This document shows positions 34,243 to 57,503 of a stretch of 64,000 nucleotides of DNA, piece by piece. The notes under the pieces were generated by a model. The model ran no database searches. It saw only the letters and a list, made by a program, of their open reading frames with translations, and was not told where the DNA came from. Origin of the DNA: Planctomycetota bacterium (lineage in GTDB: Bacteria; Planctomycetota; B15-G4; SIAN01); the NCBI GenBank assembly GCA_009691715.1, contig SIAN01000004.1:13101-77100 (forward strand), in the 5' to 3' direction. The translations under genes and the position numbers were made by a program. Each line of letters begins with the position of its first letter. Position 1 is the stretch's first letter.

Positions 34243-34246
34243 CGCC

Positions 34247-38943: not shown

Positions 38944-38954
38944 ACGAAACGGTC

Positions 38955-38972
38955 TCCGCGCAACCGCGCGGG
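38955..38972 (+). terminator. GC-rich hairpin downstream of groEL
   Basis: The hairpin tcCGCGCaaccGCGCGga lies 12 nt after the groEL stop, with no U-tract. Confidence 0.3.
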
Positions 38973-39021
38973 ACTGGAGCACGGTGCCCGCGCAACTGCG
39001 TGGGCTACAAGGAGGAATCCC

Positions 39022-39489
39022 ATGCTGCCGACGTTGTTCCGTGAGACCGAGCGTTCACCGCTGTTCGGACTGCGCAACCGGATCGACCGGGTGTTCGAGG
39101 AACTTTTCACGCATCAAGGTAACGGGAACGAGTGGGTCGACCCGTGGGCGGGCGGCGCCAACTTCCTGCCCGCGCTCGACCTGCGCGAGACCGATGACGC
39201 GCTGATCGCCGAGGTCGAACTGCCTGGCCTGAAGAGCGAGGACGTCCACGTGCAGGTGCAGGACGACATGCTCGTGCTGCGCGGTGAGCGCAAGCAGGAG
39301 AAGACCCTAGAAGACCAAGGGCTGGCACCGGACGGAGCGCAGCTACGGCCGCTTCGAGCGCCGGATCGCCCTGCCGAGCTCGGTCGATGCCGAGAAGATC
39401 GAGGCGTCGTTCAAGGACGGGATGCTCACCGTCACGATGCCGCGCGCGGTGAGCGCGAAACCGAAGACCATCCCCGTCAAGGTCCGCTG
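39022..39489 (+). pseudogene. Hsp20/alpha-crystallin small heat-shock protein with apparent +1 frameshift near 39316
   Basis: A strong GGAGG SD precedes the start. The N-terminal frame gives ...LVLRGERKQEKTLEDQ. The canonical continuation GWHRTERSYGRFERRIALPSSVDAEKIEASFKDGMLTVTMPRAVSAKPKTIPVKVR* is in the +1 frame ending at 39489. One extra C around 39316 separates the frames. Confidence 0.6.
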
Positions 39490-39532
39490 AAGTGGTTCGC
39501 CGCGCTCAGGCGACTGGTCGCAGCAGACCCAC

Positions 39533-40573
39533 TCACTGCGATCGGCGCTCGAGCGGCGGCAGCGTCCCGCGCGGCGGCTCGGGCGCGAATCGCAGCTTTC
39601 GCTCCACGACGCACCAGACGAAGGTGGCGGCGCCGTAGGCGAAGTAGAGCTGGTGCAGGAACAGGCCGGCCAGCGCCGTCGCCAGGCCGGCCGCGCGCCA
39701 CAGCACGACGTAGAACGGCGCGCTGACCAGCGCCGCCACCAACAGGAGCCCGAGCGCCGCACCGAGAAACGGTCGATGCATCAGGCCGAGCGCCGCCGTC
39801 GCGAAGAACGCGCCTGCAATCAGCGCTTTCAGCCGCTCGGCGTTGCTGACGTTCAGCACGGCACCGGCGAGCTCTGGATGCTGCAGCAGCCGGCCCCACG
39901 GCAGCGCGCGGCGGAAGACGTCGGTGTGGAGCATGCTCCGAAGCGTCCAGCGCTTGAGGTGGGTGCCCTGCACCTCGGGCGCGAGCAGGATCTTTCCACC
40001 GGCGCGTCGCAGCCGGTAACCGAGCTCGATGTCCTCAATCGATGGGACGGTGTAGTAGTCGGCGTCGAAGCCCCCCGCCGACAAGAACGCGTCGCGTCGC
40101 ACCGCGCCGCAGCCGGCCCAGAAGGTCGACGCCTCGCCGGCGTGCGTCGTGTGGGTGTGGTGGTGCAGCAGGTTGCGGTAGCGCGAGACGACGCCGGGAG
40201 CGTTCGGCTGCTCGTCATAGGCGCCGAACAGGGCGACGATGTCGGCGCGCCGCGCGAAGTGGCGCGCGACCAGCTCCGGCACGTCGTCGTGCATCACGAC
40301 GTCGGAATCGACGAACAGCAGGATCGCGCCGCGCGCCGCGAGTGCACCCTGGTTGCGGCAGGCGCCGGGCCCCTTGCGCCCACCGGACGGGATGACGGTG
40401 AAGCCCGCGGCCTGGCACTGCCGTGGCCCATCATCGGTGCAGCCATCGTCGACGACGATCACTTCGGCGACACGGCCCGCGGCGAGCGCGCGCTGAAGCG
40501 GCGGCGCCACCCGCGTGAGGTAGCTCGCGGCGTTGTACATCGGCACGACGATGCTGATCGCGGCGCTGCTCAT
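39533..40573 (-). CDS. Family 2 glycosyltransferase
   Basis: It starts ISIVVPMYNAASYL and has the VVDDGCTDD DxD region. Its start overlaps the deacetylase stop (ATGA). Confidence 0.75.
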   Translation of the reverse strand: MSSAAISIVVPMYNAASYLTRVAPPLQRALAAGRVAEVIVVDDGCTDDGPRQCQAAGFTVIPSGGRKGPGACRNQGALAARGAILLFVDSDVVMHDDVPELVARHFARRADIVALFGAYDEQPNAPGVVSRYRNLLHHHTHTTHAGEASTFWAGCGAVRRDAFLSAGGFDADYYTVPSIEDIELGYRLRRAGGKILLAPEVQGTHLKRWTLRSMLHTDVFRRALPWGRLLQHPELAGAVLNVSNAERLKALIAGAFFATAALGLMHRPFLGAALGLLLVAALVSAPFYVVLWRAAGLATALAGLFLHQLYFAYGAATFVWCVVERKLRFAPEPPRGTLPPLERRSQ

Positions 40574-41322
40574 GCGCCGTACGCCGCGCCCTTGACGCGT
40601 CGCAGGAGACGCCGCCACGCGATCCATGCACGCGTGCGCGGCGCGAAGAGCGGTAGCCGGCGCGCCGGATCGCGCAGGTACCAGCTGTCGAGCCGAGGCC
40701 ATTCGTGGACGCGAGCGGCACGCCTGGCCGCAACCTCGGGCAGATAGTCGAGCAGCGTCGTGACCGCGCTCGACCAGTGCAGAGCGACCTCTGCGCGGCT
40801 CGCGGCGTCATGCCAGCCGTAGGGATAGGCGAAGTGGCTCACCCGCGAGCCAAACCGCTGCTCGAGCGCGGCCTTGCTGTCGACCAGTTCGCGGCGCGCG
40901 GCATCGGGGGCGAGCGCACGGCAGTCGACGTGGTTGGCGGTGTGGCCGCCGATCGTGCCACCGGCGGCGAGCAGTTCCTGCAGTTCCGTCTGGCCCATCA
41001 GCTCGAACCGCGGGATGGCCGCCGTCTGGCCAGGCCAGCGGTTGTCGCGGCCGATCCAGTCGGAGACGACATAGGCCGTGAACGGCAGTCCGCGCCGCGC
41101 GAGTCGCGGCAGCGCGTCGGCATGCACGGAGCGAAAGCCGTCGTCGAAGGTGAGCGCCACGCGCGGCGCGGCTCCCGTTGACGGCACCCGCAGCGCGTCG
41201 AGCGCGACGATCGCGACTCCCTCCGCCTGCAGGCCATCGAGCAGCCGCTCGAAGTCTTCCGGCGAGTAGGAGAGCACCGAGCCGCTGCGGTCGATGCCAT
41301 GGAAGGTGAGGAGCGCGTCCAT
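40570..41322 (-). CDS. Polysaccharide deacetylase (NodB-homology domain)
   Basis: It contains LTFDDGFRSV (the TFDDG motif) and a His-rich metal site. Its start overlaps the GT4 stop (ATGA). Confidence 0.75.
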   Translation of the reverse strand: MDALLTFHGIDRSGSVLSYSPEDFERLLDGLQAEGVAIVALDALRVPSTGAAPRVALTFDDGFRSVHADALPRLARRGLPFTAYVVSDWIGRDNRWPGQTAAIPRFELMGQTELQELLAAGGTIGGHTANHVDCRALAPDAARRELVDSKAALEQRFGSRVSHFAYPYGWHDAASRAEVALHWSSAVTTLLDYLPEVAARRAARVHEWPRLDSWYLRDPARRLPLFAPRTRAWIAWRRLLRRVKGAAYGA

Positions 41323-42527
41323 CAGCGCGCCTCCGTGGCGACCGCGCGCCGGAAGCAGGCGACCGCGTCGGCGGCGCCGCGCTCCCAGGTGAAACGGCGC
41401 GATCGGGCAAGCGCTTTCGCGGCGAGCAGCGCGCGCTGCTGCGGCCGACCCAGCACTTCCGACAGCGCCGCCTGCAGCGCCATCGCATCGAGCGCGGGCA
41501 CCAGCAGGCCGCCGTCGCCCACCACCTCCGGCAGCGAGCCGGCGTCGCTCGCCACCACCGGCGTCGCGCAGCTCATCGCCTCGAGCGCCGGCAAACCGAA
41601 GCCTTCGAGCAGCGACGGCAGGACCAGCGCGCACGCTCCTTGATAGAGCGGCACGAGATCGTCGTCGGCGACGAAGCCGGTCCAGTGGACGCGCGCGGCG
41701 AGCCGCGCATCGGCGGCGATCTGCTGGCGCAGCGGAGCGGCGCTGTCGAGGAAGCCGTCCGCCTTGGGATCGCCCACCAGCACGAGCGTTGCGTCGCCGC
41801 TTGCGCCATTGCTTGCGTTGGCGAGCAAGCGCGAGAACGCCGTGAGCAGCGTCGCAAGGTTCTTGTGTGGGCTGATGCCGCCGACGAACAGGAAGTAGGG
41901 TCGATCCTCCGGGATTCGCAGTCGTCGCAACGCCGCCGCGAGCGCCGCGTGATCGGTCGGCGGCCGGAAGCGCGCGTCGGCGCCCTCGCTCACCACGTCG
42001 ATCCGATCGGCGGCGATCCCGTAGACGCGGCCGACGTCACGCCTCGACGCCTCGCTCACCGTCATCACGCGCGTCGCCTGACGCGCCGCGAGCCACGATT
42101 TCGCCCGCCAGAACCACTCGCTCTTCCGATCGGGGAAGACCATCCTCGGGAAGGTCTCGGCGATCGCGTCGTGGAAGCAGACGACCGCGCGCGTGCCGGG
42201 CCAGAGCGGGAAGGCGCTGTAGACGGCCGGCAGGAACAGCAGGTCGGCCTGGCAACGACGAGCCGCGCGCGTGAACGCAAACAGCTCAGCGGGGCGACGC
42301 GCATCGCCGGCGACGGCAGCGTCGGTCACGCTGCGGCCGGGTTGCGCGTTCAAGCGCGGCAGCGCCAGGAGCGGTTCCGGCAGATCGCCCGGCGCGGCGT
42401 CACGGTCGACCAGAAGCACGAAGTCGAAGCCGTCGCTGCGGCGCGCCAGCGCGGCCAGCAGCTCGCGCGCGAAACGCCCGAAGCCGCGGCGGTTGAAGCA
42501 GCAGGAGGCGTCGACGGCGATGCGCAA
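41322..42527 (-). CDS. Family 4 (GT-B) glycosyltransferase
   Basis: The C-terminal EGFGLPALEAMSCATPVVASDAGSLPEVVGDGG is the canonical GT4 E-X7-E region. Confidence 0.8.
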   Translation of the reverse strand: MRIAVDASCCFNRRGFGRFARELLAALARRSDGFDFVLLVDRDAAPGDLPEPLLALPRLNAQPGRSVTDAAVAGDARRPAELFAFTRAARRCQADLLFLPAVYSAFPLWPGTRAVVCFHDAIAETFPRMVFPDRKSEWFWRAKSWLAARQATRVMTVSEASRRDVGRVYGIAADRIDVVSEGADARFRPPTDHAALAAALRRLRIPEDRPYFLFVGGISPHKNLATLLTAFSRLLANASNGASGDATLVLVGDPKADGFLDSAAPLRQQIAADARLAARVHWTGFVADDDLVPLYQGACALVLPSLLEGFGLPALEAMSCATPVVASDAGSLPEVVGDGGLLVPALDAMALQAALSEVLGRPQQRALLAAKALARSRRFTWERGAADAVACFRRAVATEAR

Positions 42528-42699
42528 CCGGAGCGACCTCAGAGTGCCTGACAGAATGGACGCGTGACGCCGAGGCCAAGCGAGGGCACCTGGGGCGAGG
42601 AGACCGAAGCAGGCGACTCTGAAGAGTCGCCGATGGAGGTCGACGAAGTCCTGGGTGACCGCAGCCAGCCAAACGTAGTGGACCTTCTGTCAGGCACTC

Positions 42700-44154
42700 T
42701 CAGTCCTCGACCACGTGGGTCGCGAAGACCGCACGATGCTTCGCCCACGCGGCGCGGTCGAACTCGGCGCCGGTGAGGCAATCGACTGCTGCCCATGCCA
42801 TCGCCAGCGCGTGGTGGGTGTTGTCGTGGGCGAAGAGTCCCTGCCGCCCGTAGGTGAGGAAGCGCGGCAGCGTGTCGCAGAAGCGATCGACCTGTTCGAG
42901 CGGCTGCTCGTAGCCGTTCAGGTAGATCGGATAGGCCTGCGGCAAACGCATCACCTTCACCGCAGTCGGCGGCGCCGGCAGCGGCAGGCCGGCGCGGGCG
43001 AGATCGGCCGCAACGACCGCACCGAGCTCCGCCTCGCTCATCTTCCAGAAGCGATCGCCAGCGTCGCACGGCAGCTCGGCGCAGAGCGTGGTCGCGCCCG
43101 CGGGTGCGCCGAGGTCGCCGTAGTTCTTCGGTTCCGACAGGCGCGTAATCGTGATCTCGGCTTCGGGGAAATAGTGGGCGTCGTACTCGGTGAACTGCGC
43201 CACTGGGAGGCGCAGGTAGACCAGCAGCATCGCGCGGTAGCTCACCTGCGCCGCTGCCGCGAACACCGGCGCGGGCGGCGGTTCCGTGAGCAGTTTCGGG
43301 ACGAGCGTGACCGGCAGCGTCGACCAGACGTGGTCGGCTTCAAGCACGGACTCGCGGCCGCCACGATCGATCGCGATCCGCCACGGCGCGTCTCCACGCG
43401 GCGCTTGCAGCGACTTCACCCGATGTTCGAGCAGCAGCTCGGCGCCTGAGGACTGCGCGGCGCGCGCCAAGGCGTCGGAAAGCTGTCCGTAACCGTGGCG
43501 CGGGTACCAGAACCGGCCGCTGCCGGGCTTTTTGAAGCCGGGAACCGCGTTCAAGACCTTGCGCACCAGCTTCAGCACGGTGCCGGCGGAGACGCGACGA
43601 CGCGCCTGGATGCCCGACAGCTGTTCCGGTCCGCGGCCCCAGATCTTGCGCGCGTACGGAAAGTAGAAGCGATCGCACATGGTCGGTCCGAGGTTCTGGC
43701 TCAGGACCGATTCAAACGTGTCCGGCGTGCCGGGCGCGGGACGCCGCAGTCGCTTGGTCGCGCCGTCGTAAGCGAGCGACACGCCGAAACTCGGCGGCAG
43801 TCGCGTCAGCAGATCGAGCGGCTTCAGCGGAAAATGGATGAAACGGCCGAGCAATCGGATGCGGCCGTGGCGCGGGCGGTCGAGCAGATCGGCGCCCAGC
43901 AGCTGCTTCAGATCGGCGAGGATCGACGGCTCGCAGGCGGGATGGAGCCGATGGCTGCCGAAGTCGAGCTTCTGGCCTTCCCACTCGAAGCTGCCGGCAT
44001 TGCCGCCGAACCACGGATTCTGTTCGACCAGCGTGACCGACGCCTTCTTCTGCAACGCGAGCTGCCACGCGCCACCGAGTCCGGCCGGGCCTCCGCCGAG
44101 CACGACCACGCGTGGGCGCCCCGCACTGCCAACGCGGTCATTCGTGACGCTCAT
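42700..44154 (-). CDS. FAD-dependent oxidoreductase (amine-oxidase/UDP-galactopyranose-mutase-like Rossmann fold)
   Basis: It has an N-terminal dinucleotide-binding motif VVVLGGGPAGLGGAWQLA followed by FGGNAGS. Its start overlaps the upstream membrane protein stop (ATGA). Confidence 0.65.
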   Translation of the reverse strand: MSVTNDRVGSAGRPRVVVLGGGPAGLGGAWQLALQKKASVTLVEQNPWFGGNAGSFEWEGQKLDFGSHRLHPACEPSILADLKQLLGADLLDRPRHGRIRLLGRFIHFPLKPLDLLTRLPPSFGVSLAYDGATKRLRRPAPGTPDTFESVLSQNLGPTMCDRFYFPYARKIWGRGPEQLSGIQARRRVSAGTVLKLVRKVLNAVPGFKKPGSGRFWYPRHGYGQLSDALARAAQSSGAELLLEHRVKSLQAPRGDAPWRIAIDRGGRESVLEADHVWSTLPVTLVPKLLTEPPPAPVFAAAAQVSYRAMLLVYLRLPVAQFTEYDAHYFPEAEITITRLSEPKNYGDLGAPAGATTLCAELPCDAGDRFWKMSEAELGAVVAADLARAGLPLPAPPTAVKVMRLPQAYPIYLNGYEQPLEQVDRFCDTLPRFLTYGRQGLFAHDNTHHALAMAWAAVDCLTGAEFDRAAWAKHRAVFATHVVED

Positions 44155-45176
44155 CCGTGGCGCACCTTCATCTCCGGGTTGATCTTTGGAGTCGCCAGCG
44201 GCGAACGGCGCCGGAGCACCAGCCACACCGCGCCGCAAAACAGGCTGCCGACGATCAGCACGCCTTGCCACAAGAACGACGCGGCCAATGCGCGCGCCTT
44301 CACCTCATCGAACGGCAGCGCGGTGGCGACGACCAGCGGCGCGAACAGCACCGCGAACACGCCATCGCGCACGCCGATGCCGTTGAAGCTCGCCGGCGCC
44401 AGCCCCGCCAGCTTGGCGAGCGACCAGGCGAATACCCACGCGGCCGCGCTCGCCTCGAGCCCGAGCGCGCGGCCGAGCACCGCATTCAGCGCGATCAACG
44501 AGCCCTGCATCGCCACTCCGCCCGCGAGCGAGAAGAACAGCACCTTCGGTCGGCGGCCCTGTCGACGCAGCGCGATCAGCAGTTGCGCGATCCGCCGGCG
44601 CCAACGCGGCGGCCAGCGTTTGAGCGGCCGTCGCACCAGCACCAGCAGCGCGACGACGCCAGCGGCAGCAGAGAGCGCGACGACCAGCACCAGCAGCGTC
44701 CCCGCGGTTCCTTGCCGATCGAGGCCGACGAACGCACCCGCGGCCACCACCAGCACGCCAAGCGCCATCAGATCGAGCAGACGGTCGGCCACGCCGCCGA
44801 GCACGGCACCTTCCATCCGGCCGCTCTTCCTCCCCGCGAGCAGCGCGCGCAGCACGTCGCCGCCGACGATGCTCGGCAGGAACAGGTTCGAGAACAGGCC
44901 GGCGCAGTAGCACTCGACCGACTGCCGCAGCGTGAGGCGCGCGCCGGCTTGGCCAATCACCATCCGCCATTTGAAGACGCCAAACAGGTGGCAGGCGACG
45001 AAGCCAAGGACCACCAGGAAAAACGTCGACGGCGGGACACTCGCGAGCGCGGCGCGCAGTTTCTGCCATGGCACCATGCGCACCAGCAGCGCCAACACCA
45101 GCGCGCTCGCGGCGAGCCGGAAGGCGAGCTTGCGCCGACTCGATGCGGCGACCGGGCCTGGCGGCGCGCGGTTCAT
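44151..45176 (-). CDS. Multi-TM membrane protein, lysylphosphatidylglycerol-synthase-TM-region (MprF flippase-like, UPF0104) family
   Basis: It has about 8 TM helices with basic loops. It resembles the flippase-like TM domain found with GtrB-type enzymes. Confidence 0.55.
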   Translation of the reverse strand: MNRAPPGPVAASSRRKLAFRLAASALVLALLVRMVPWQKLRAALASVPPSTFFLVVLGFVACHLFGVFKWRMVIGQAGARLTLRQSVECYCAGLFSNLFLPSIVGGDVLRALLAGRKSGRMEGAVLGGVADRLLDLMALGVLVVAAGAFVGLDRQGTAGTLLVLVVALSAAAGVVALLVLVRRPLKRWPPRWRRRIAQLLIALRRQGRRPKVLFFSLAGGVAMQGSLIALNAVLGRALGLEASAAAWVFAWSLAKLAGLAPASFNGIGVRDGVFAVLFAPLVVATALPFDEVKARALAASFLWQGVLIVGSLFCGAVWLVLRRRSPLATPKINPEMKVRHG

Positions 45177-45180
45177 GCGA

Positions 45181-46074
45181 TCAGCGCTTCATCGCCATCC
45201 GCGCGTTCTGGTCGGCGAGGAGGCCCACGGACCAGACGACGAGCGCACCGAGCAGCGCCAACACGGCACTCTCCGACAAGTTGTCGAGGAAGCAGTCGTA
45301 GGCGAACTTCGCGGTGCCGGCGGCGAACAGCAGCGCACCCACCGGCAGGAAGAACTTGAGCGGGTGGAACAGCACCACCGTCCGCAGGATCAGCAGCAGG
45401 AAGTCCCACGCGTGGCGCGGCCGGATCTTGCTGGCACCGTGCCGCTTGCCGTAGTCGATCGCCACGAACTTGATCGGGTGCCCGTTGCAGGCGCACGACA
45501 GCGTGATCGTGGTGGTGAAGGAGAAACCTTGCGGCAGCAGGTGCTCGTAACGCTTGACCAGCGACTTGCGCATGAGCCGCATGCCGGAGTTTAGATCGGG
45601 GATGCGCAGTCCCGAGAGGTAGCTCGCCAATCGGGTGAGCACCCACTTGGCCGGCCGGCGCACCAGCGGGATGTTCACGTTGGCACCGATGCGGGCGCCG
45701 ACGACCATCTCGTGCTGTGCCGCCTGTTCGAGGAGTTGCGGGATCGCGGCCGACGGGTACGTGCCGTCCGCGTCGGTGATCAGGATCCAACCATGCTTCG
45801 CGGCGTTGATGCCGGTCTTCAAGGCCGCGCCGTAACCCTCGTTGCGGACCTTGCGCAGCACGCGCGCGCCGGCAGCGGATGCCTCTTCGGCGGTCGCGTC
45901 GCGCGAACCGTCGTCGACGACGATCAGCTCCCATTCCCAGCCGCTCTTCGCCATCGCCTCGGCGACGGCGCGAACCTGTGCCGCGACGTGCGGCCCCTCG
46001 TTGAACGCGGGGATCACGACGCTGACGGCGCGCTCTTTCGCGCCCAATGCCGGTTCGCCGACCTCCTCGATCAA
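45181..46074 (-). CDS. GT2 polyprenyl-phosphate sugar transferase (GtrB/ArnC/DPM1-like)
   Basis: It contains VVIPAFNEG...LIVVDDGSRD...ITDADGTYP and two C-terminal TM helices. A TTG start after a G-rich SD is proposed. Alternative starts exist up to 46233. Confidence 0.7.
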   Translation of the reverse strand: MIEEVGEPALGAKERAVSVVIPAFNEGPHVAAQVRAVAEAMAKSGWEWELIVVDDGSRDATAEEASAAGARVLRKVRNEGYGAALKTGINAAKHGWILITDADGTYPSAAIPQLLEQAAQHEMVVGARIGANVNIPLVRRPAKWVLTRLASYLSGLRIPDLNSGMRLMRKSLVKRYEHLLPQGFSFTTTITLSCACNGHPIKFVAIDYGKRHGASKIRPRHAWDFLLLILRTVVLFHPLKFFLPVGALLFAAGTAKFAYDCFLDNLSESAVLALLGALVVWSVGLLADQNARMAMKR

Positions 46075-46239
46075 GAGCCGCCCCCCGCCTTGCCGCCGTG
46101 GACCGCCGTCTGCACTGCCCTGCCACTGCCTGCCGCCTCTTCGGTGGCGCCGCAGTCGGAGCTTGACCGCGGATTGTAGGGCGCCGGAGCGGAAGGCCGT
46201 TCCGCATCGCGCGACGCGGCGTCGGCTGCTCACTCCAGT

Positions 46240-47763
46240 TCAGTGACCCGCGCGCGCCACGAAAACCGTCCCGCCCCCCATCGATCCGGGCAGCTCGGCG
46301 ACGACCTCGAAGTCGCGCTGCACCACCTCCCAGACATCAGGTCGCGCGGCCGCGAGCTGTTCGGGCAACGTGTAGACCAGCCAAGTCGTTGCGGCAGCGG
46401 CGCGGATCGCGGCGAGATCGGCCGCCGTGTCGGCCTTCGTCCAACTCGGCGCGTAGTAGTCGGGCAACGCCCGCTTCGCCGGCCCGACCGCAACCCGGGC
46501 GTCGTTCGGCTTCGCGCGCGCCTCGACCAAGTCGCGCGCGCCGACGAAATCCTGCTTCGGGTGGGCATAGACCCGTTCGAGCGAGAGCGAGGATGCCGCC
46601 GCCACCGCGAGCACGACGGCGATCCCCCACAGCTCGGTCCGGCGCACCTTGCAGCCCGGCAGGTTGCACGACAGCCAACCGCCGCTGATGCGCGCGCCGC
46701 GCACGACGACGATCGCCACGAAGCCGGCCTCGAAGAAGAAAAAGCGCGGATAGAGGTGGCGATGGAGCGTGAGCAGGACCGCAAGCGCGAGCGGCGGCGC
46801 CAGCAGGTGCATCAGCACGAAGGCGCGCCGGCCGTTGCGCCAGAGCGAAACCGTGCCGATCAGCGCCAGCACGCCGGCGGCAGCGATGCCGATCAGCGCG
46901 AACGGCGATACGCCGAGGCTTTCGATCATTTGGCGCACGGCCCACAAGGGGCTCGTCCACGGCTCGACCTTGGCAACGGTGACGCTCGCGCCGCTGGCGC
47001 GCGCGGTGAACGCAGCGACCAGATCGCCGGCGAGTGGCGCGTAGAGCAGCAGCGCCAGGGCCGCCGCGCCGCCCATCGCGGCGAGGGCCGTCGCGGTCGC
47101 ACGCGGCAGCGGTGCTGGGGCGCAGTCGACCAAGGGTCGCACCGGTCCCGTCGCCGTCGTCTGCGCCGGCCAGAACCGGAGCCCGGCCCACACAAGCGCG
47201 TGGCCGACGAATGCGAACACCGCCGTCAGGTGGGTGTACGCGGCAAGAGCGGCGAACAGCGCGTAACGCCACGCACCACGGCGCGTCGGCGCCGACAGGA
47301 GGCGCAGGAACTCGCTGGTCGCCAGCACCGTGAACAGCAACATTCCGGTGTAGCCGCGCGCGTTCTGCGAGAACCAGACATGGTGCGCCGAGACCGCGAG
47401 CAGGAGCGCTGCCAGCAGTCCGGTCGTCTCGTCGATCAGTTGCCGCCCGAGTCGGGCGACGGCGAACAACGACGCCACGCCGAAGAGCAGTGCCGGCAGG
47501 CGGACGATCGCCTCGCTCTCGCCGAACGCGACCACTGCCAGACGCGCCAGCACTGAATAGAGCGGGTGCTGGTTCTCGCTGCCGTAGCTAATGACGATCG
47601 TCGCAAGCGGCTGGCGCACGATTGCGACCAGAGTGTCGACCTCATCGATCCAGAACGACGACGACAGGCCGACGAGACGCAGCCCGAGGCCGAGCACGAG
47701 CAGCGCCGCCAAGAGCAGCATCCCGCGCCGACCGAAGCCGGCCGTCGGCGCTGCTTCGGTCAC
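46240..47763 (-). CDS. GT-C family glycosyltransferase (ArnT/PMT, family 39/83-like)
   Basis: It has about 12 TM helices and an N-terminal DE motif region (FWIDEVD), typical of lipid-linked sugar transferases. A GTG start overlaps the stop of the small ORF upstream (GTGA). Confidence 0.7.
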   Translation of the reverse strand: MTEAAPTAGFGRRGMLLLAALLVLGLGLRLVGLSSSFWIDEVDTLVAIVRQPLATIVISYGSENQHPLYSVLARLAVVAFGESEAIVRLPALLFGVASLFAVARLGRQLIDETTGLLAALLLAVSAHHVWFSQNARGYTGMLLFTVLATSEFLRLLSAPTRRGAWRYALFAALAAYTHLTAVFAFVGHALVWAGLRFWPAQTTATGPVRPLVDCAPAPLPRATATALAAMGGAAALALLLYAPLAGDLVAAFTARASGASVTVAKVEPWTSPLWAVRQMIESLGVSPFALIGIAAAGVLALIGTVSLWRNGRRAFVLMHLLAPPLALAVLLTLHRHLYPRFFFFEAGFVAIVVVRGARISGGWLSCNLPGCKVRRTELWGIAVVLAVAAASSLSLERVYAHPKQDFVGARDLVEARAKPNDARVAVGPAKRALPDYYAPSWTKADTAADLAAIRAAAATTWLVYTLPEQLAAARPDVWEVVQRDFEVVAELPGSMGGGTVFVARAGH

Positions 47764-47963
47764 TTGTCGGCGATGTCTTCCGAGCCGTACGGCAGACGCG
47801 TCTGGATGTCGCCGACGTCGAGGTCAAGTTCACCGTCGCCATCACGACGGACCGCCGCGGTCTCCCCTGGCTTGCCCATCGGCAAGGTCGCGTCGAACTG
47901 CGATCCCGGCACGGGCTTGCCCGGCTCGATCTCGCCGGCAGCCTTCTGATCCTTCGCTTCCAT
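47760..47963 (-). CDS. Small acidic protein (67 aa), candidate modified peptide/substrate
   Basis: An AGGGAGAG SD precedes the start, and the ORF is translationally coupled to the GT-C gene. The product is hydrophilic and Asp/Glu/Gly-rich (…DGDGELDLDVGDIQTRLPYGSEDIADK). Confidence 0.4.
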   Translation of the reverse strand: MEAKDQKAAGEIEPGKPVPGSQFDATLPMGKPGETAAVRRDGDGELDLDVGDIQTRLPYGSEDIADK

Positions 47964-48023
47964 CGCGGCGCTCTCCCTGTCAGCACGCAGCCTGTCAGCG
48001 CGAAGCTGAGCCGCGCGCGAAGT

Positions 48024-48239
48024 TCAACGCTCCTGGCCCGTGAACCCTTCCTTCAGCCGATCCGTCGGCGCGATCTCCTCGATCGCGAAGTCGAATCCGT
48101 CCGCTGCCACCGCCGCCGGCAACCCGGTCGCGGCGGCGGTCGGCGCGGAAGGCGACGGCGAACCTGCTGGCGCAACGGTCGAGTCGCGCGACGGTCGAAC
48201 CGCGTCGCCATCCGCCATCGGTCGGTTGTCCATCGTCAT
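48024..48239 (-). CDS. Small Ala/Pro/Ser-rich acidic protein (71 aa), candidate modified peptide/substrate
   Basis: A GGAG SD precedes the start, which is 25 nt after the rSAM stop. The C-terminus DGFDFAIEEIAPTDRLKEGFTGQER loosely resembles the C-terminus of the next small ORF. Confidence 0.35.
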   Translation of the reverse strand: MTMDNRPMADGDAVRPSRDSTVAPAGSPSPSAPTAAATGLPAAVAADGFDFAIEEIAPTDRLKEGFTGQER

Positions 48240-48264
48240 CGTGGCGCTCCGCCTGAAAGGGCCG

Positions 48265-50769
48265 TCAAACCGCCGACGGCTTGCAGTAGAGGTGCATCGT
48301 TTCGGCGACTCGCACCGGATCGGCGGCAGCCGGAGCGACGGTGAGATCGCCCGTCCCGTTCGCCGCCGATGCCGAAGACGCCAACGACGACGCCAACGAC
48401 GACGCCGAAGGCGACGCCGCAGTTCCTCGCGGCCGCTCGCTGACGCCGAACGGTCGCGCCGTGACCAGCCCGCGCACCAACAACTCGCCGAGGAACTTCT
48501 CGACCTTGGGCTGCTGCGCTGCAGTGAAGCCGCCGACGATCTCCGCCACCGTCTTGCGCCCATCGCACGCCTCGAGCAGGCGCGCCGCATCCTTGCCGAC
48601 GTGCAGCAAATCGCTTGAACGCGCGCGGTAGACGGCGAAGTTGCGCGCCGGTGGCGCGGCCGGTACTTGGCTCGACATCTCCTCGAACAGCTTTTCCTTG
48701 AAGTTGCCCGACTGGTAGCGCGGCTTGAGGACGGCGCATTCCGCCTCGTTCAGCTTCTCCGCGATCGTGCGCAGGTCGTAGGGCATCTCGACCAGCCGGT
48801 TGCCATCGGGCAGCCGCAGGCGAGCGGTGGCGAGCTCGGCGGGTGCCGTCTCGGCGACCGTGACCTCGCTCTTGCCGTGCAGGAACGACAGATCCCCGTA
48901 ACGGCAGAGGTAGAGGAAGTAGTGGCTCTTCAGCTCGAAGAGCAGCAGGTTGTCGCCGCGGAAGAGCGGGAACTCCTCGCGCAGCACCTTCATGAAATCG
49001 AAGAAGAGCTCGCGTGCTTCGCGCCGCGACATGCCGCCGTCGACGATCTGCGTCGCGGAGCCGCTGCTGCCGTCCTGGCAGGAGGCGCCGTCGGGATGGC
49101 CGTGGTCGTCGCCGTGGGTCTTGCCGTACTGCTTCACCACCGGCAGCGTCGTGCCGGCGCGCGCCGGAATCCAGTCGTAGTAGACCTGCAGATCCTTCTC
49201 GGGATCGATCAGGATGCGCTCGACGCCGTAGGTCTGCGGGTGCTCGAAGACCTTGCTCAGGTGGTCGACATAGAAGATCCGCAGCGACACCTCGTCGACG
49301 CAGTCCTTGTGCGAACGCAGCCAGGCGAGCGTCTCGAGCGCTTCCTCGCGCGTCTCGGTCGGGAAGCCGATCATCGTGTAGAGCGTGTTGCTGATGCCGA
49401 CCTTGGCGAGCCGGCGCAGGATCCCCTCCGCCTCTTCGATCGCGGTGCCCTTCTCCATCAGGTCGAGCAGGCGTTGCGAGCCACTCTCGAAGCCGAACGC
49501 GATGCGCCGGCAACCGGACGCGTAGAGGTCGCGGCAGAGCTCGTCGGTGAAGAGGTTCTTCTCCAGGCGCGCGTCGGTCCACCACTTGATGGCCAGGTCG
49601 CGCTTCTTCAGTTCGATCGGGAGCTGCTTGAAGACCGGTGGCGGCATGTCCTCGACGACGAAATAGATGACGTCGCTGTTCCAGAGCTTCGTCACCTTCG
49701 CGATGTCGTCCATCACCTTGTCGAGTCGACGCTGGCGGAAGCCGGGGCCGATCACCTTGTACAAGGTGCAGAAGGCGCATTTCTCCCAGTAGCAACCGCG
49801 CGTGATCGCAAGCGGCAGCGCCAGCTTCGGCGAGTAGTAGCGCTCCATCGGCATGCCGTCGAACTCGGGCGTCGGCAGCGAGTCGATCGAGAGCGGGCTC
49901 GCCGGCGCATTGACGACGACCTTGTCGCCGTCCTTCCAGATCGCGTTGCCGACCCCGTCAGCGGGATTCTCCTTGCCGGCCGCGACGTTCTTCGCCAGCT
50001 CGAGCAGCGGCCCTTCGCCTTCGAGCACGATCGCACTGTCGATGGCGGCGAAGACCTTTCCGCTGCGGGTCGCTTTCTCCCCGATGTAAGCGAGCAGTCC
50101 GCCGCCGACGGTCACATGCACGTTCGGCAGCGCCTGCTTAATCATGCGGGCAAGTGCCAAGCCCGGAATCACCTGGCTGGTGTAGGTGAGCGAGATCCCG
50201 ACCAGGTCGGGCTTCATCGCGATGATCTCGGGCAACGCCTTGTCGCGGAAGTATTCGCAGAAGAAGTTGGCCTGCTCGTCGAAGACGGCGGCGAGAACCT
50301 CCGCCTCCTTCTCGATCGACCACGACAGCGTGTAGTTGTGCGGCGTGAGCGAACTCGGGTAGTGCTCGGCCGAGATCAGGCGGAACGCGCGGTCGAGAAG
50401 CTTCACTGCGCGCAGGTAGCGGTCGTAGTCGTAGAACGCCTCGTCGTTGCGCAGCGTGAAGAGCGCCTCGTCGATCCCCTCCACCACCGAGTCGGCCGAA
50501 GCGTGCGCCTCGGCCAGCACGCGGAAGCGGTCCATCTGCGGCAGCGGCAGCGGCCGATCGACCGGGTGCGCGGCGAACGCGGTCGCGACCCGATCGCGCG
50601 CCAGCGCGAGACGCTCCTTGGCCAGGAACCACTCGTGCGCTTCGAGGTTGAGATCGCGCTGGTGGCTGTCGGCGAAACCGTTCGCGCGCAGGAAGGCGAC
50701 CAGTGACGGCAGGGCGAGGTACGGTTGCGTCGGGTGAGCCTGCGGCGGGAAGAGCAGAAGAGTGCGCAA
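48265..50769 (-). CDS. B12-binding-domain radical SAM enzyme with long C-terminal extension (possible PqqD/RRE-like segment)
   Basis: It has an N-terminal B12-binding-like domain (LLLFPPQ...). The rSAM cluster LAITRGCYWEKCAFC is a Cx4Cx2C spacing variant. It is 834 aa long, and the C-terminus contains LLEACDGRKTVAEIVGGF...FLGELLVRGLV. A TTG start follows a GGAGGA SD. Confidence 0.75.
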   Translation of the reverse strand: MRTLLLFPPQAHPTQPYLALPSLVAFLRANGFADSHQRDLNLEAHEWFLAKERLALARDRVATAFAAHPVDRPLPLPQMDRFRVLAEAHASADSVVEGIDEALFTLRNDEAFYDYDRYLRAVKLLDRAFRLISAEHYPSSLTPHNYTLSWSIEKEAEVLAAVFDEQANFFCEYFRDKALPEIIAMKPDLVGISLTYTSQVIPGLALARMIKQALPNVHVTVGGGLLAYIGEKATRSGKVFAAIDSAIVLEGEGPLLELAKNVAAGKENPADGVGNAIWKDGDKVVVNAPASPLSIDSLPTPEFDGMPMERYYSPKLALPLAITRGCYWEKCAFCTLYKVIGPGFRQRRLDKVMDDIAKVTKLWNSDVIYFVVEDMPPPVFKQLPIELKKRDLAIKWWTDARLEKNLFTDELCRDLYASGCRRIAFGFESGSQRLLDLMEKGTAIEEAEGILRRLAKVGISNTLYTMIGFPTETREEALETLAWLRSHKDCVDEVSLRIFYVDHLSKVFEHPQTYGVERILIDPEKDLQVYYDWIPARAGTTLPVVKQYGKTHGDDHGHPDGASCQDGSSGSATQIVDGGMSRREARELFFDFMKVLREEFPLFRGDNLLLFELKSHYFLYLCRYGDLSFLHGKSEVTVAETAPAELATARLRLPDGNRLVEMPYDLRTIAEKLNEAECAVLKPRYQSGNFKEKLFEEMSSQVPAAPPARNFAVYRARSSDLLHVGKDAARLLEACDGRKTVAEIVGGFTAAQQPKVEKFLGELLVRGLVTARPFGVSERPRGTAASPSASSLASSLASSASAANGTGDLTVAPAAADPVRVAETMHLYCKPSAV

Positions 50770-50782: not shown

Positions 50783-51133
50783 TCAGTTTGGCGAGGTGAA
50801 GCTATCGGCCGGCAGCGCCAGAATCACGCTGGCGATCGCACCGCGCGCCTCATGGAGACGGAAACCGCGTGCCGCCAGTTCCCGCTTGGCTTCGCCGCTG
50901 AAGGCGAGCGCGATGACCCAACCGCAGTCGGCGACGAGGTTTGCCAGGGCCAAATAGTCCCGGAACACCCGGCCGGGCGATGCCGGCAACGCGCGCCGAT
51001 CGACGAAGCGGACTTCGTTCCCGTGCCGCTCCCAGACGACGCAGTCGGCGGCGCGATGGAAGCGCTCGTTGACGCCGATGCCGTCGCGCGAGATGACGGC
51101 GATCCGTCGCGAGGGCCGTGCGTCGTGCGACAC
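50783..51133 (-). CDS. NifX/NifB-type (dinitrogenase FeMo-cofactor-binding domain-like) small protein
   Basis: The 116-aa sequence RIAVISRDGIGVNERFHRAADCVVWE...VRFVDRR matches the Nitro_FeMo-Co domain pattern. The GTG start is 2 nt after the upstream stop. Confidence 0.45.
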   Translation of the reverse strand: MSHDARPSRRIAVISRDGIGVNERFHRAADCVVWERHGNEVRFVDRRALPASPGRVFRDYLALANLVADCGWVIALAFSGEAKRELAARGFRLHEARGAIASVILALPADSFTSPN

Positions 51134-51135: not shown

Positions 51136-53157
51136 TCAGTAGCCCGCGGCCGGGTCGACGACGGACAGGAGCTGCTCGCCCGCGGCGAAGCGCCGCAAGT
51201 TCTCGCGGTAGAGCAGGAACTGCCGCTCTGCCGCGCTCGCGCTGTCGGCCGCGACGTGCGGGGTGATGACGACCTGCGGGAAGCGCCAGAGCGGGTGGTC
51301 GGGCGGCAGCGGCTCGGGATCGGTCACGTCGAGCGCGGCACCAGCGAGCCGCCCCGACTCGAGCGCGGCGATGAGCGCGGCGGTGTCGACGCACTTCCCG
51401 CGCGCGACGTTGCAGAGCCGAGCGCCCGGCTTGAGCGCGGCGAAGAAGCGCTCGTCGCAGAGCCGCGTCGTCGCGGGGGTGAGCGGCACGCAGATGAAGA
51501 CGATGTCGGCGAGCGGCGCCAGCTCGAGCAGCCGATCGGGCGGCTCGACGCGCTCGACTTCGGAGGAGACGCCGCGACCGGAGGGGGTGGTCGCGATCAC
51601 TCGCGCGCCGAAGGCCGCGGCGCGCCGCGCGATCTCGCGGCCGATGCCGCCGAGGCCAGCGATCAGGACCGTCTTGCCGCGGAGCTCGTCCATGCCCGCG
51701 GGCGCGACGTCGCGCCATTCGTGCGCGCCGCGCTGGTTCTCGCCAAAGGCCGGCAGCCCGCGCATCAGCGCCAGCATCATCCCGAGCGCGTGATCGGCGA
51801 TCTCCGGGCCGTAAAGCCGCTGCGCGTTCGTGAGCGCGACGCGACGCTGCGCGATCGCCGGAATCCCGACGTAGCGCTCGACTCCCGCGGAGCCGACCTG
51901 CGCCCAGCGCAGCATCGTTCCGCGCGCCAGCAGCTCGGCACTGCAGGCACCGATCAGCCCGTCAGCATCGACGACGTGCGCCAGCGCGGCGGCCGGGTCG
52001 ACTGCGGCGACCAGCTCGAGTTCGGGGACGGCAAGGCGCAGCCGCGCGACCAACGCATCATCGCTGTCGACGACCAAGACCTTGCGCGGCGCCTTCCAGC
52101 CGGGCGCTTCGCGCGACGGCGATGGGCCCGGCACGAGGCCGAGCTCTTCAGTGAGCAGCAGTGGCGGTCGGCGCCCGGTGAACTCGCCGAAGACGTGAGC
52201 GACGTTCTCTGCGCGCGAACTCGCCGCGACACCGGTCCATTCCTGGTACCACGGCAGGTCGAGCCCCGACAGGATCCCGCCTTCGTCCTGTCCCGTCGCG
52301 ATGCCGACGGCGACCGCGTCGCGCAGATCGATCAACCAGCGTCGCTGGCGGAGGAGCAGCTCGGGCCCACCCTCCGCGCCGTGCCCCGGACAGACGATCC
52401 GAGGTCGCAGCGCGATCAGCCGGTCGAGCACTGCAATCCAGTTCTCGCTGTCGCTGTCGCCGAGGAAGTTGTGCGCCCCGTTGACACAGAGGTCGCCGGT
52501 GAAGAGCACGCGTTCTTCCGGCAGCCACGCGACGGCGTCGCCGCGAGTGTGGCCGCGGCCGTAGTGCAGGAACTCGACGCGGCGGGCGCCGCTACCGACG
52601 ACCAGTCGCTCGTCGAATCGGAGCGATGCGCCGACGAAGCGGGTGCCGGCGAGCTGCGTGCGCTCGGCCGCGTCGGTCGACTGCTCGATGCGGCGGAACG
52701 CGGCGAGGCCGCGCGTTTCGAGCAATTCGGCGCACCGCGAATGGGCGGCGACCAGTGCGCCGCCGTCGGCGTGGACGGCGTTCCCGAAACTGTGGTCCCA
52801 GTGGTCGTGGGTGTCGAAGACCAGCCGCACCGGCAACGCGCTCCGTTGCGCGATCTCCTCGCGCAGCGCGCGCGCGACCACCGGCATGCTCGCCTCGATC
52901 GCGACGATCTGGTCGTCCTGAAGGACGAAGCCGCTGTTCGCGCCCTCGAACACCGGCGCGATCGACGCCTCGGCGAAGAAGACGCCGGGCGCAACTTCGC
53001 GGACGGTCGGCCGCGAAGTTGCGGCAAGTGGCGCAGTTGGCGCAGCTACCGCGGCAGCGGCAGCCGGCGCGTGCGCAGCCGTCGGATCTGGCAGCGGCCA
53101 GCAGAACGGTGCCGCAGCCAACACCGCGACGATCGCGATCCTCGTGCTCGAAACCAT
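51136..53157 (-). CDS. Fusion protein: secreted metallo-beta-lactamase-fold hydrolase + D-isomer-specific 2-hydroxyacid dehydrogenase (NAD-binding)
   Basis: The N-terminus has a signal peptide (MVSSTRIAIVAVLAAAPFCWPLP) and MBL motifs (VFDTHDHWDHSFGN, CPGHG). The C-terminus has GKTVLIAGLGGIGREIARRAAAFGARVI and ITPHVAADS. The + strand ORF 51118..53226 is Arg-rich antisense junk. Confidence 0.75.
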   Translation of the reverse strand: MVSSTRIAIVAVLAAAPFCWPLPDPTAAHAPAAAAAVAAPTAPLAATSRPTVREVAPGVFFAEASIAPVFEGANSGFVLQDDQIVAIEASMPVVARALREEIAQRSALPVRLVFDTHDHWDHSFGNAVHADGGALVAAHSRCAELLETRGLAAFRRIEQSTDAAERTQLAGTRFVGASLRFDERLVVGSGARRVEFLHYGRGHTRGDAVAWLPEERVLFTGDLCVNGAHNFLGDSDSENWIAVLDRLIALRPRIVCPGHGAEGGPELLLRQRRWLIDLRDAVAVGIATGQDEGGILSGLDLPWYQEWTGVAASSRAENVAHVFGEFTGRRPPLLLTEELGLVPGPSPSREAPGWKAPRKVLVVDSDDALVARLRLAVPELELVAAVDPAAALAHVVDADGLIGACSAELLARGTMLRWAQVGSAGVERYVGIPAIAQRRVALTNAQRLYGPEIADHALGMMLALMRGLPAFGENQRGAHEWRDVAPAGMDELRGKTVLIAGLGGIGREIARRAAAFGARVIATTPSGRGVSSEVERVEPPDRLLELAPLADIVFICVPLTPATTRLCDERFFAALKPGARLCNVARGKCVDTAALIAALESGRLAGAALDVTDPEPLPPDHPLWRFPQVVITPHVAADSASAAERQFLLYRENLRRFAAGEQLLSVVDPAAGY

Positions 53158-53323
53158 GGCCTGCGCGCCTCCTCCGACCCGAACACTCGATCCGTCGCGC
53201 ATCGGCGGCGCAATGAGGTGGGATGAGGGTCGTACTGCGCCGAGCACGTCGCAAAGATTCGCCGGTATCACCCGCAAACGACAGTCGGAGGACCTGCCTG
53301 CGCGCGGCGAAAACCGGGGTCGG

Positions 53324-54813: not shown

Positions 54814-56769
54814 TCAGCCACCCTTCCCAGCAGCGATCTTGCTTTCGCGCACGAATCGCTTGTCCCCGCTGCGCACCGTGAGTCCGCTGCCGTCGAAGTG
54901 CTCAAGCAGCGGGATCATGAACTTGCGCGACGTCTTGAGCGCGTCGCGCAGCTCCGGGATCACGACCTCGCCGGCGTGCGCCTTCGCGATCCGGATCAGT
55001 TCGCTGCGCGCGCGTTCGTAGGCGGCCTGCACGAAGAACAGCGGTCCGACCCGCATGACCTCGCCCTCGTCGGCCAGTAGCGCGAGCAGGCTCGCAACTT
55101 TCTTGTGCAGCGCGTGGAGCTTTTCGGCGGCCTCCTCCGCGAGCGGAGGCTGCAGATCGGCGGCCGCGTACAGGGCGCGCAGTTCACCCAACAGTCGCTC
55201 GTCGTCGGCGGAGATGGCGGGCCGATGCGATGTGAGGCGGAGGTGACCGGGCAGCCCCTCCTCGATCACCGCACCGCGCTTGATCAGCAGCTCCCGCGCA
55301 AGCGAAAGCGTCGACTCCGGCAGATCGGCGCTGGCGCGAAGCTCGCGGATCTCGACCAGCTTCTTCAGCGGATGGGCCTTGTGCAGCTTCTTGAGCGCGG
55401 CTTGCACCGCCTCGGTGGCCTCGTCGGCGAACTTCTTCGACAGCAACTGCCCGCGCCCGACGTCGACCAGCGCGCCCGCCGACTGCAGTTCGCGCGCAAG
55501 ACCCTGCGCGTCGGCGAGCGTCAGCGCGACGTCGGTCGCGAGGTCGCGCAGCTCGAAGGGCTCGAATCGGCGCTGCTCGGCGGCGAAGCGCAGCGCCAGC
55601 GACGGGTCCGCCAGCGCCTGCTCGCGCTGCTCGAGCGCCTCGATGTGCCATTCCTTGAGCCGCCGCCGGTGGGTGCGCGCGGCGCCGAACAGAGTTCCGC
55701 CGCCGAGCGTCACCATCGGCGACACCTGGCGCACTAGGAAGCGGTCGCCGGCGCAGGCGACCACCGGTTGCTCGACCTCGATCTGAACGAGGCCCTCCTC
55801 GCCGGGCCGCAGCATCGGCTTGTCGACGATGCGGACGCGCCCGATCACCTCCGAGGTGCCGACGTGGAGCCGGATCGGCGTGCGATGTTCGACGGGCTGC
55901 TCGCGCCCGCCGAGGACGCGCAGACGCGCTTCGAACAGGGTCGCCGCCTGGAAGAAGCCGGGCTCTGCCGCGACCATCCCGCGTGTCAGCTCGCGGTAGT
56001 CGACGTCGGACAGATTGAGAGCGCAGGAGTGGCCCGCGGTCGCGCGCTCGCGCGATTCGCCGTAGGCGTGGATGCCGCGGATGCGCGCCCGCTTGCCAAG
56101 CGGCAGCAGCTCGATCTCGTGTCCGATCTCGACCGTCCCGGAGAGCGGCACGCCGGTGATCACGGTGCCGTGGCCCTTGGCCGAGAAGACGCGCTGGATC
56201 GGCAGGCGGAACAGTCCGTCGGGCGGGCGCGGCCGGACGGCGGCGACGCGGCGTTCGAGCTCCGCCTTCAGCTCGGGGATGCCGGCCCCGGTCACGTTGC
56301 TCACCGGGAGGATCGGCTGGCCGTCGAGGAAGGTGCCGCGGATCAGCGTCTGCACGTCGTCGACGGCAAGCTCGCGCAGGTCGTTGTCGACGAGGTCGAT
56401 CTTGGAGAGGACCACGAATCCGCTCTGCACGCCGAGCAGGCCGAGGATCTCCAAGTGCTCGCGCGTCTGCGGCATCACGCCGTCGTCGGCGGCGATCACC
56501 AACATCACGATGTCGAGCGAGGTGGCGCCCGCCACCATGTTCTTGACGAAGCGCTCGTGGCCGGGCACGTCGATGATCCCGACCAACCGTCCGTCGGCGC
56601 CGCGCATGCGCGCGAAGCCGAGGTCAATGGTCATGCCGCGCTCCTGCTCCTCGGGCAGGCGGTCGGGGTCGATGCCGGTGAGCGTGCGCACCAGGCTCGA
56701 CTTGCCGTGGTCGATGTGGCCGGCGGTGCCGACGATGACGTTGGCGATGCCGGACACGGGCGGCGTCAC
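54814..56769 (-). CDS. selB: Selenocysteine-specific translation elongation factor SelB
   Basis: It has the GTP-binding domain [21 protein letters not shown]...[12 protein letters not shown]...SKIDL, EF-Tu-like domains II/III, and C-terminal winged-helix repeats, and is about 650 aa. A GTG start overlaps the upstream stop (GTGA). Confidence 0.85.
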
Positions 56770-57503
56770 CAGCTCGCCGCAGTCGTCTCGGCGAGGTAGA
56801 GGATCCGCTCGCAGCTCCGGCAGAGCACCAGCTCGTTGCCGGTGTGGAGCCGGGCGTAGTCGTTGGCGGTGATGCTCATCGAGCAGCCGCCGCAGATGCG
56901 TGAATCGGCCGGCACCATCGCCTTGCCGTCGCGCACGCGCAGCACACGGTCGTAGACCGACAGCGGCCCCGCCGGGATCGACTTGGCTTGCTCGGCGCGG
57001 TGCTTCGCCCGCTCGGCCAGTTCGGCGCGGTATTCGGCCTCGTCCTTCTTCCACTGGACGAGGTCGACGTCGACCTCCTTCTGCAGCGCGGCGCGCGTCG
57101 ATTGGAGGTCGATCAGTTCGCGCTCGATCGACTCGACCTGCGTCAGGTGCTCGAGAATCCGGTCCTCGATCGCCCGCGTGTCCTTCTTCAGGCGGGTCAC
57201 GTGCTCACCGAACGCCCGAAACTCCTCGTTCGTGCGTGACTGCCCCTGCGCGCCCTGGATCTTCGCGATCTCGGCATCCTTGCCCTTGACCTCGAGCTCG
57301 GCCAGGCCGGCCTGCTTCTTCAGGTCCAGGATCCGGGCCAGCGCCGTGGCGACCCGCGCCTCGCTCTGCCGGAAGCGCTCGCCGCGCCGCTCGAGGATCT
57401 GCGGCATCTCCTGGATGCGCTGCTGGATGCGCCGCGTCTCCTGGTCGACCTTCTGCAGCGCGAGCAACCCCGCCAGAGTCACCTTCAGGTCTGCCGTCGC
57501 CAT
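56766..57503 (-). CDS. Coiled-coil protein with C-terminal C4 zinc ribbon (COG1579/DUF164-like)
   Basis: It has a long coiled coil and a C-terminal CGGCSMSI...CRSCERILY zinc ribbon. Confidence 0.6.

Follow-up and report, generated by a model that had tools for sequence, protein, structure and literature searches.

Two short acidic peptides as putative substrates of an adjacent cobalamin-dependent radical SAM enzyme in Planctomycetota

What is encoded by two short open reading frames (ORFs) that lie between the gene of a radical S-adenosylmethionine (rSAM) enzyme and the gene of a GT-C-type glycosyltransferase in a planctomycete genome? We addressed this question in a stretch of 64,000 nucleotides, hereafter the window (GenBank assembly GCA_009691715.1, contig SIAN01000004.1, positions 13,101 to 77,100), and named the two ORFs pepA and pepB. 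All coordinates given for this locus are positions in the window, and all the genes concerned are on its minus strand. An initial annotation had named both ORFs the best substrate candidates for the rSAM enzyme beside them and for the glycosyltransferases. Our data favor the first part of this proposal, since the three genes are syntenic in all informative loci and the enzyme carries a predicted fused recognition element of the type used by peptides that are made on ribosomes and modified after translation (RiPPs). We propose, with a probability of roughly 0.7, that the products of pepA and pepB are ribosomal peptides serving the neighboring cobalamin-dependent rSAM enzyme as precursors or substrates, in a RiPP-like system.

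As described in the initial annotation, the two ORFs are adjacent, pepA (ORF1, 71 amino acids [aa]) occupying positions 48024-48239 and pepB (ORF2, 67 aa) positions 47760-47963. The idea that gene callers would have missed ORFs of this size does not hold for this record: in the Planctomycetes metagenome-assembled genome (MAG) from which the window comes, the two are listed as hypothetical proteins (EXS13_03020/MSR46031.1 and EXS13_03015/MSR46030.1, respectively). Each is preceded, 7 nucleotides (nt) upstream of its ATG, by the Shine-Dalgarno site previously noticed, GGAG for pepA (48247-48250) and AGGGAGAG for pepB (47971-47978). The codirectional gene located 5' of pepA encodes an 834-aa protein with B12-binding and Radical_SAM domains; its stop codon is separated from the pepA ATG by 25 nt, and pepA and pepB are spaced by 60 nt. 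At the other end, the pepB stop codon and the GTG with which the GT-C gene begins overlap by 4 nt (AAGTGA), which agrees with the overlap reported initially. The identical overlap is called in a second locus (L018), but it is not universal, since in L001 a sulfatase gene on the opposite strand intervenes. A scan of positions 47400-48500 revealed no promoter- or terminator-like site, and because none was found between them, we read the rSAM, pepA, and pepB genes as one operon. Predicted RNA folding of the pepA-pepB spacer was no better than that of shuffled sequences (z = 0.05).

Both products had been described as strongly hydrophilic, rich in aspartate and glutamate, and devoid of transmembrane segments. 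This is accurate for PepB, which is strongly acidic and hydrophilic (grand average of hydropathy [GRAVY], -0.80; 15 D/E; isoelectric point, 4.3; net charge, about -7.5). PepA is likewise acidic (11 D/E; net charge, about -5.5), but its hydrophilicity is mild (GRAVY, -0.38), and it is rich in A, P, S, T, and G. Neither peptide contains a cysteine or a transmembrane-like segment. Signal sequences are also absent from both, the N termini being acidic and hydrophilic with maximal 19-residue hydropathy values of 1.18 (PepA) and -0.15 (PepB).

Are these frames genuine genes? An 8-kilobase (kb) stretch of this DNA, with a GC content of 69%, is overlapped by 63 ORFs that are 40 aa or longer; chance ORFs of such a size are thus common here, and an open frame by itself is no evidence. 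The GC content at the first, second, and third codon positions (GC1/GC2/GC3), which had been suggested as a check, was 0.68/0.63/0.79 for pepA and 0.72/0.46/0.79 for pepB, compared to 0.65-0.73/0.43-0.53/0.82-0.90 for the flanking genes, a pattern that matches the claimed frames and not the overlapping alternatives. Homologues of both peptides were found at the syntenic position, as also had been suggested to look for. Public data contain 35 pepB homologues with lengths of 56 to 73 aa and 10 pepA homologues, to which further pepA sequences read straight from related loci can be added. A PepB profile run against 1.84 billion representative proteins retrieved about 15 small proteins, the remainder being repeat-protein noise. 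For both peptides, the residues of the C-terminal tail are constant across loci while third codon positions vary synonymously, and for Ser61 of PepB both codon families, TCN and AGY, are in use. In pairs of pepB sequences of the same length, the ratio of nonsynonymous to synonymous change (pN/pS) was 0.04 to 0.15 over codons 45 to 67 and about 0.6 over codons 1 to 44. Constant tails over synonymous change, together with these ratios, indicate that the genes are translated and that selection is focused on the C-terminal third. Scans of both peptides against Pfam and NCBIfam gave no family match; a hit to FbpA was discarded as a spurious, low-complexity match. One could still argue that pepA and pepB are untranslated chance frames in GC-rich intergenic DNA, given the abundance of ORFs of this length, the absence of family matches, and the unusually high GC2 of pepA. 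Against this stand the homologues of matching length, the few small proteins retrieved from so large a collection, the amino acid-invariant tails, the correctly spaced Shine-Dalgarno sites, and frames that remain open through the indel-rich N termini of the relatives of both peptides. We consider such an explanation extremely improbable and are close to certain that the stated frames of pepA and pepB are genuine protein-coding genes.

We then compared the sequences of the peptides and their relatives. Both consist of three parts, namely, a variable, indel-rich, acidic N-terminal stretch of 35 to 45 aa, an alternating hydrophobic/acidic motif, and an invariant tail. The N-terminal stretch, which is A/P/S/T-rich in PepA, is presumably disordered in both peptides, while the conserved C terminus reads FDFAIEEIAPTDRLKEGFTGQER in PepA and ELDLDVGDIQTRLPYGSEDIADK in PepB. 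According to the alignments, the strand-like motif is FDFAIEEI in PepA (48072-48095; family pattern [FL]D[FL]x[ILV]xxI) and LDLDVGDI in PepB (47805-47828). Variants include LDLSVDEI and LDLEVEEI in PepA relatives and FVFKF in peptides found next to rSAM enzymes of about 40% identity. We consider this ΦDΦxΦxxI motif a candidate docking segment for the recognition element of the enzyme in both peptides. The initial annotation had described the two C termini as loosely similar, and this holds for the motif but not for what follows it. Comparison of PepA and PepB with hhalign was not significant when narrow alignments were used (E = 0.17); with broader alignments including locus-derived sequences, only a 15-column motif upstream of the tails was matched (eLDLdvgDIq/elDfaiEEI; E = 0.003), and the tails beyond this common motif differ.

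The tails themselves are the proposed cores. In PepA, the tail is RLKEGFTGQER (48027-48059), and an alignment of 21 sequences showed that K63, E64, G65, F66, G68, Q69, and E70 are invariant, the family ending being [LM]KEGFxGQE[RM]. In PepB, the tail is RLPYGSEDIADK (47763-47798). It was invariant in all 36 aligned sequences, and the profile search added a few with RLPFGSEDIADK. An EDxADK ending is kept even in peptides encoded beside rSAM enzymes of about 40% identity. In every subfamily, as read from the sequences, the distance between the start of the motif and the C terminus is 20 to 23 residues. Besides these elements, PepB harbors a second semiconserved motif, FDATLPMG, at residues 23 to 30 (47874-47897; family pattern [FW][DE][AS]TLP[MLI]G), which hints at a second binding partner.

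The enzyme encoded upstream (48265-50769) is a class B, i.e., cobalamin-dependent, rSAM enzyme. Its B12-binding domain (about 49996-50244; PF02310, E = 8e-9) is followed by an rSAM core (about 49318-49806; PF04055, E = 1e-16) with an iron-sulfur (Fe-S) motif of three cysteines, C326-x4-C331-x2-C334 (GCYWEKCAFC; 49768-49794). Alignment showed that C326, C331, and C334 are invariant in 115 homologues, with the spacing C-x4-C-x2-C instead of the canonical C-x3-C-x2-C. The family is far larger than the peptide searches had suggested, with 302 matches below 1e-20, and it is highly conserved, with lengths of 740 to 830 aa. A full-length AlphaFold2 (AF2) model of the window enzyme was of good quality (predicted local distance difference test [pLDDT], 87.6; predicted template modeling score [pTM], 0.87), and the nearest structures found by Foldseek were TsrM (6e-16), OxsB, MgmA, TokK, and CysS, with E values of 1e-16 to 1e-12. 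Among NCBIfam models, the top similarities were to RiPP C-methyltransferases (TIGR03975; 3e-30) and to PhpK, and weak ones were to HpnJ, HpnR, ladderane-lipid, PhpK, and BzaD enzymes. All these scores are far under the curated cutoffs, which places the enzyme outside every curated family.

The C-terminal part of the enzyme is of particular relevance. Residues ~706 to 767 (48469-48654) are predicted to form a PqqD-like winged helix, that is, a RiPP recognition element (RRE). PqqD matches were obtained for 17 of 62 homologues of the enzyme (best E, 2e-7), and the domain was modeled with a pLDDT of 93 to 98 as two strands followed by three helices, with one bridge residue following helix 1. Because of the matches in homologues and the confident model, the presence of an RRE fused to the C terminus of the enzyme is well supported. 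Beyond it, residues ~781 to 834 (48268-48430) comprise a low-complexity linker and a tail, VAE[TA][ML]HL[YH]CKPS[AG][IV], shared by the clade with at least 60% identity. This extension is absent from the groups with 53 to 57% and ~40% identity, and AF2 confidence is below 50 in this region.

To what extent are the three genes kept together? The loci with the trio (L001 to L011, L016 to L019, and the contig P0019) comprise six Planctomycetota MAGs of a genome collection, the metagenome contigs L001 to L005, L016 to L018, and P0019, and in addition L011 and L019; the scan of metagenome contigs contributed four short loci only. The order rSAM-pepA-pepB is kept in every locus with enough DNA, at rSAM identities of 53 to 85%. 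In L011, a divergent pepA (ending ..LDLELERIETEGVMKEGFTGQEM) was spotted by eye between the rSAM gene and pepB, and L019 retains the trio with an rSAM enzyme only 53% identical to that of the window. A pepA homologue is thus found between the two other genes down to this level of identity. At 38 to 40% identity, three of the four loci sampled (L020, L021, and L023) contain one translationally coupled peptide gene instead, whose products of 56 to 61 aa end in ..FEDMADK or ..FEDVADK. These single-peptide loci indicate that the deepest conserved unit is the rSAM enzyme plus an "ADK-tail" peptide, and pepA looks like a paralogue that was added in the clade with at least 53% rSAM identity. Carriers found so far are almost only Planctomycetota.

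How could such a system work? The rSAM, pepA, and pepB genes would be co-transcribed, each small ORF having its own Shine-Dalgarno site. The ΦDΦxΦxxI motif would pair as a β-strand with the sheet of the RRE, in the way seen for leaders in the matched structures, and the fixed spacing of 20 to 23 residues would bring the 11- to 12-residue tail to the cobalamin/Fe-S active site. There, the class B enzyme would perform radical chemistry on the tail. C-Methylation is the likeliest reaction and our default guess, because most characterized class B enzymes are methylases, but we put methylation specifically at somewhat less than even odds.

Several observations weigh against this model. The match of the window enzyme to PqqD is under the Pfam threshold (E = 0.015), and the Foldseek E values for the RRE domain alone are weak. 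The layout of the peptides is atypical for RiPPs, with a variable N terminus and a recognition motif placed directly before a very short core. Family scans of the conserved neighbors of the trio revealed no peptidase, leader protease, or exporter, so that the product may remain inside the cell or have its processing enzymes encoded at unlinked sites. In L022, an rSAM homologue with 38% identity has no peptide gene immediately downstream; a 58-aa ORF of similar flavor, ending ..LDFAKLDLRIEKIEERISPSETNVFDK, lies 2 kb off, and this locus may represent a related system with a different tail. As for the guess of methylation, class B rSAM enzymes such as OxsB, BchE, and HpnJ are not methylases.

We next compared the locus with known systems. 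Proteusin-type and other B12-dependent rSAM C-methyltransferase RiPPs (PoyB/PoyC, TIGR03975 rSAM_ocin_1, clavusporins, and ApyD) similarly combine a class B enzyme with short ribosomal peptides encoded beside it. TIGR03975 is indeed the best NCBIfam similarity, but at 105.3 bits versus a cutoff of 281.85. Our locus differs from these systems in that neither PepA nor PepB carries a leader of the NHLP or Nif11 type (no Pfam or NCBIfam match at E ≤ 0.01), the RRE is fused to the C terminus of the enzyme, and the place of a long variable core is taken by a putative one that is short, acidic, and invariant and forms the C-terminal tail. The pathways for pyrroloquinoline quinone (PQQ; PqqA/PqqD/PqqE) and mycofactocin (MftA/MftB/MftC) likewise pair a small peptide, whose C-terminal core is invariant, with a neighboring rSAM enzyme that uses a PqqD-type RRE; there as here, the core is conserved over wide phylogenetic distances, which would be expected if the product has a fixed cellular role. 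A metallo-beta-lactamase (MBL)-fold protein is encoded nearby in our locus too, and PqqB has an MBL fold. However, the rSAM enzyme described here is a cobalamin-dependent class B enzyme with no match to SPASM-type families, the peptide sequences are unrelated, and there are two different peptides per locus. Additionally, no PqqB/C or MftD/E homologues were detected among the neighbors by family scan. MgmA (TIGR04014), the glutamine C-methyltransferase of methyl-coenzyme M reductase (MCR), matches in its B12 and rSAM folds (Foldseek E = 5e-14 with 9ccb; phmmer E = 4e-4) and, like other B12-dependent rSAM enzymes that act on polypeptides, targets a side chain or backbone carbon. In contrast to our enzyme, which scores 49 bits against an NCBIfam cutoff of 360, MgmA has no RRE, and its target is a large folded protein instead of dedicated small peptides. 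The system thus follows the logic of RRE-dependent rSAM RiPPs and is a member of neither the PQQ nor the mycofactocin nor the proteusin-type families.

We then turned to the glycosyltransferases, the second class of enzymes that had been suggested to act on the peptides. The genes following pepB (39533-47763) form an envelope glycosylation module whose link to the peptides is uncertain. Family scans identified, in this order, the GT-C/PMT_2 gene (46240-47763), a GT2 gene resembling polyprenyl-phosphate-hexose synthases (45181-46233), a flippase-like LPG_synthase_TM gene (44151-45176), a flavin adenine dinucleotide (FAD) amine-oxidase-like gene (42700-44271), a GT4 gene (41322-42527), a polysaccharide deacetylase gene (40570-41634), and a second GT2 gene (39533-40702). 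The GT-C, GT2, flippase-like, and FAD genes follow pepB in about nine loci (the window, L001/L002, L006 to L008, L016 to L018, and the P0019 contig), and the GT4, deacetylase, and GT2 genes continue the module where the sequence extends far enough. This adjacency reaches down to 62% rSAM identity and survives local insertions of the opposite-strand sulfatase gene and of an AhpC gene. Its persistence despite insertions and divergence suggests that it is more than an accident. In L003, L009, L010, and L013, however, pepB is followed directly by genes for an acyl-CoA dehydrogenase and an AMP-binding enzyme that are 73% and 65% identical, respectively, to window genes located beyond the module (35920-37065 and 32629-34320), which indicates that a stretch of ~11 kb (~37100-47760 in the window) is present or absent as a block. 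The module is also missing next to the trio or rSAM gene in the local DNA examined from L011 and L019 to L023.

Could the rSAM-modified peptides nevertheless be glycosylated by this downstream pathway to give a glycopeptide? In such a scheme, a polyprenyl-phosphate sugar made by the GT2 enzyme would be flipped by the flippase-like protein and then transferred by the GT-C enzyme, for example, onto Ser61 of PepB. Such a route would recall the bacterial protein O-mannosylation pair, a GT2 polyprenyl-phosphate-mannose synthase and a GT-C enzyme of the PMT family; the GT2 encoded after pepB resembles dolichyl/polyprenyl-phosphate hexose transferases and is accompanied by the flippase-like protein and the PMT_2 GT-C enzyme. 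The recurrent position of the module after pepB and the 4-nt overlap in the window and L018 are in line with it, as are the invariance of Ser61 in the RLPYGSEDIADK group despite switching between codon families and the presence of a PMT_2 gene near the distant rSAM gene of L022. However, GT-C enzymes work at the periplasmic face of the membrane and the known acceptors of O-mannosylation are secreted, whereas signal sequences and transmembrane segments are lacking in both peptides and the cluster has no exporter. Retention of the peptides does not depend on the module, their tails being unchanged in L003/L009/L010, L011, and L019 to L023. Furthermore, the residue of PepA at the equivalent hydroxyl position varies (T/S/V/A), and the adjacency could reflect a gene order inherited within one Planctomycetota clade. 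We therefore regard glycosylation of the peptides as unlikely. A slightly less likely alternative is that PepA and PepB bind the RRE as adaptors or regulatory subunits and thereby tune or target an rSAM enzyme whose substrate is a lipid, a glycan, or another small molecule of the adjacent envelope pathway. The lack of a protease or exporter, the envelope and redox enzymes encoded nearby, and the weak similarity to class B rSAM enzymes acting on lipids or small molecules (HpnJ, HpnR, ladderane-lipid, PhpK, and BzaD by sequence; OxsB, TokK, and CysS by fold) would fit such a role. On the other hand, RRE domains are known to bind peptides destined for modification, the strongest constraint falls on the extreme C-terminal tail past the docking-like motif, which is the pattern of a core and not of a simple tether, and the trio is kept where the envelope genes are missing. 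A lipid- or hopanoid-type role of the enzyme, as its weak similarity to HpnJ, HpnR, and ladderane enzymes might suggest, was ranked low, since an RRE is fused to it and its peptide genes are obligate.

If the peptides are precursors of the rSAM enzyme, as we favor, the locus would represent an uncharacterized peptide maturation system composed of an rSAM enzyme with a built-in peptide recognition domain and dedicated peptides, and it would offer a tractable new peptide substrate for class B rSAM enzymology. A literature search for "EDIADK" gave no match, and full-text searches combining B12-rSAM, RiPP, and Planctomycetes returned no description of the system. The peptides form two small-protein families for which neither Pfam nor NCBIfam has a model, and we propose the names "ADK-tail" and "GQER-tail" for them. 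The last 6 to 12 residues are frozen down to ~40% enzyme identity, which argues for a fixed cellular role rather than for a diversifying antibiotic; the product could be a cofactor, a signal, or an envelope component. More speculatively, the invariant tails might be what a conserved peptide-derived cofactor or small molecule is built from in Planctomycetota and their relatives. Such a compound would be analogous to PQQ or mycofactocin but made by the cobalamin-dependent rSAM enzyme, and it would be distinct from secreted antibiotic-type RiPPs; we give little weight to this proposal. In such a case, the NifX-like protein and MBL-dehydrogenase fusion described below and/or the envelope glycosylation enzymes might act together with the rSAM enzyme.

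Upstream of the rSAM gene, two accessory genes were identified. The first encodes a small NifX-like protein with a Nitro_FeMo-Co domain (50783-51130, start codon approximate; Pfam E = 4e-6); it is found at this place in L001, L006 to L008, L011, and L016 to L018 and is absent in L003/L009/L010. The second encodes a 713-aa fusion of an MBL and a D-2-hydroxyacid dehydrogenase (51136-53277; family scans), which is kept upstream in most loci with the glycosyltransferase module and absent in L003-type loci.

Other features were noticed around these loci. In the window, an ORF of 619 aa with no Pfam match (37123-38982) lies between the glycosyltransferase module and the acyl-CoA dehydrogenase gene. 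The neighborhood of the rSAM gene in L022 (1721-10570 of that locus) contains a second B12-rSAM gene, ATP-grasp fragments, the PMT_2 gene, and the 58-aa ORF. The rSAM homologues of ~40% identity are translationally coupled to FG-GAP/UnbV_ASPIC beta-propeller genes (L020, 6226-10417; L021, 6223-10375; L023, 429-10784), with several copies in L023, and in L011 an FG-GAP-repeat protein is encoded directly after pepB (9913-11925). Finally, a family scan of the window identified a gene for SelB, the selenocysteine-specific elongation factor (54814-57054), so that the organism probably makes selenoproteins.

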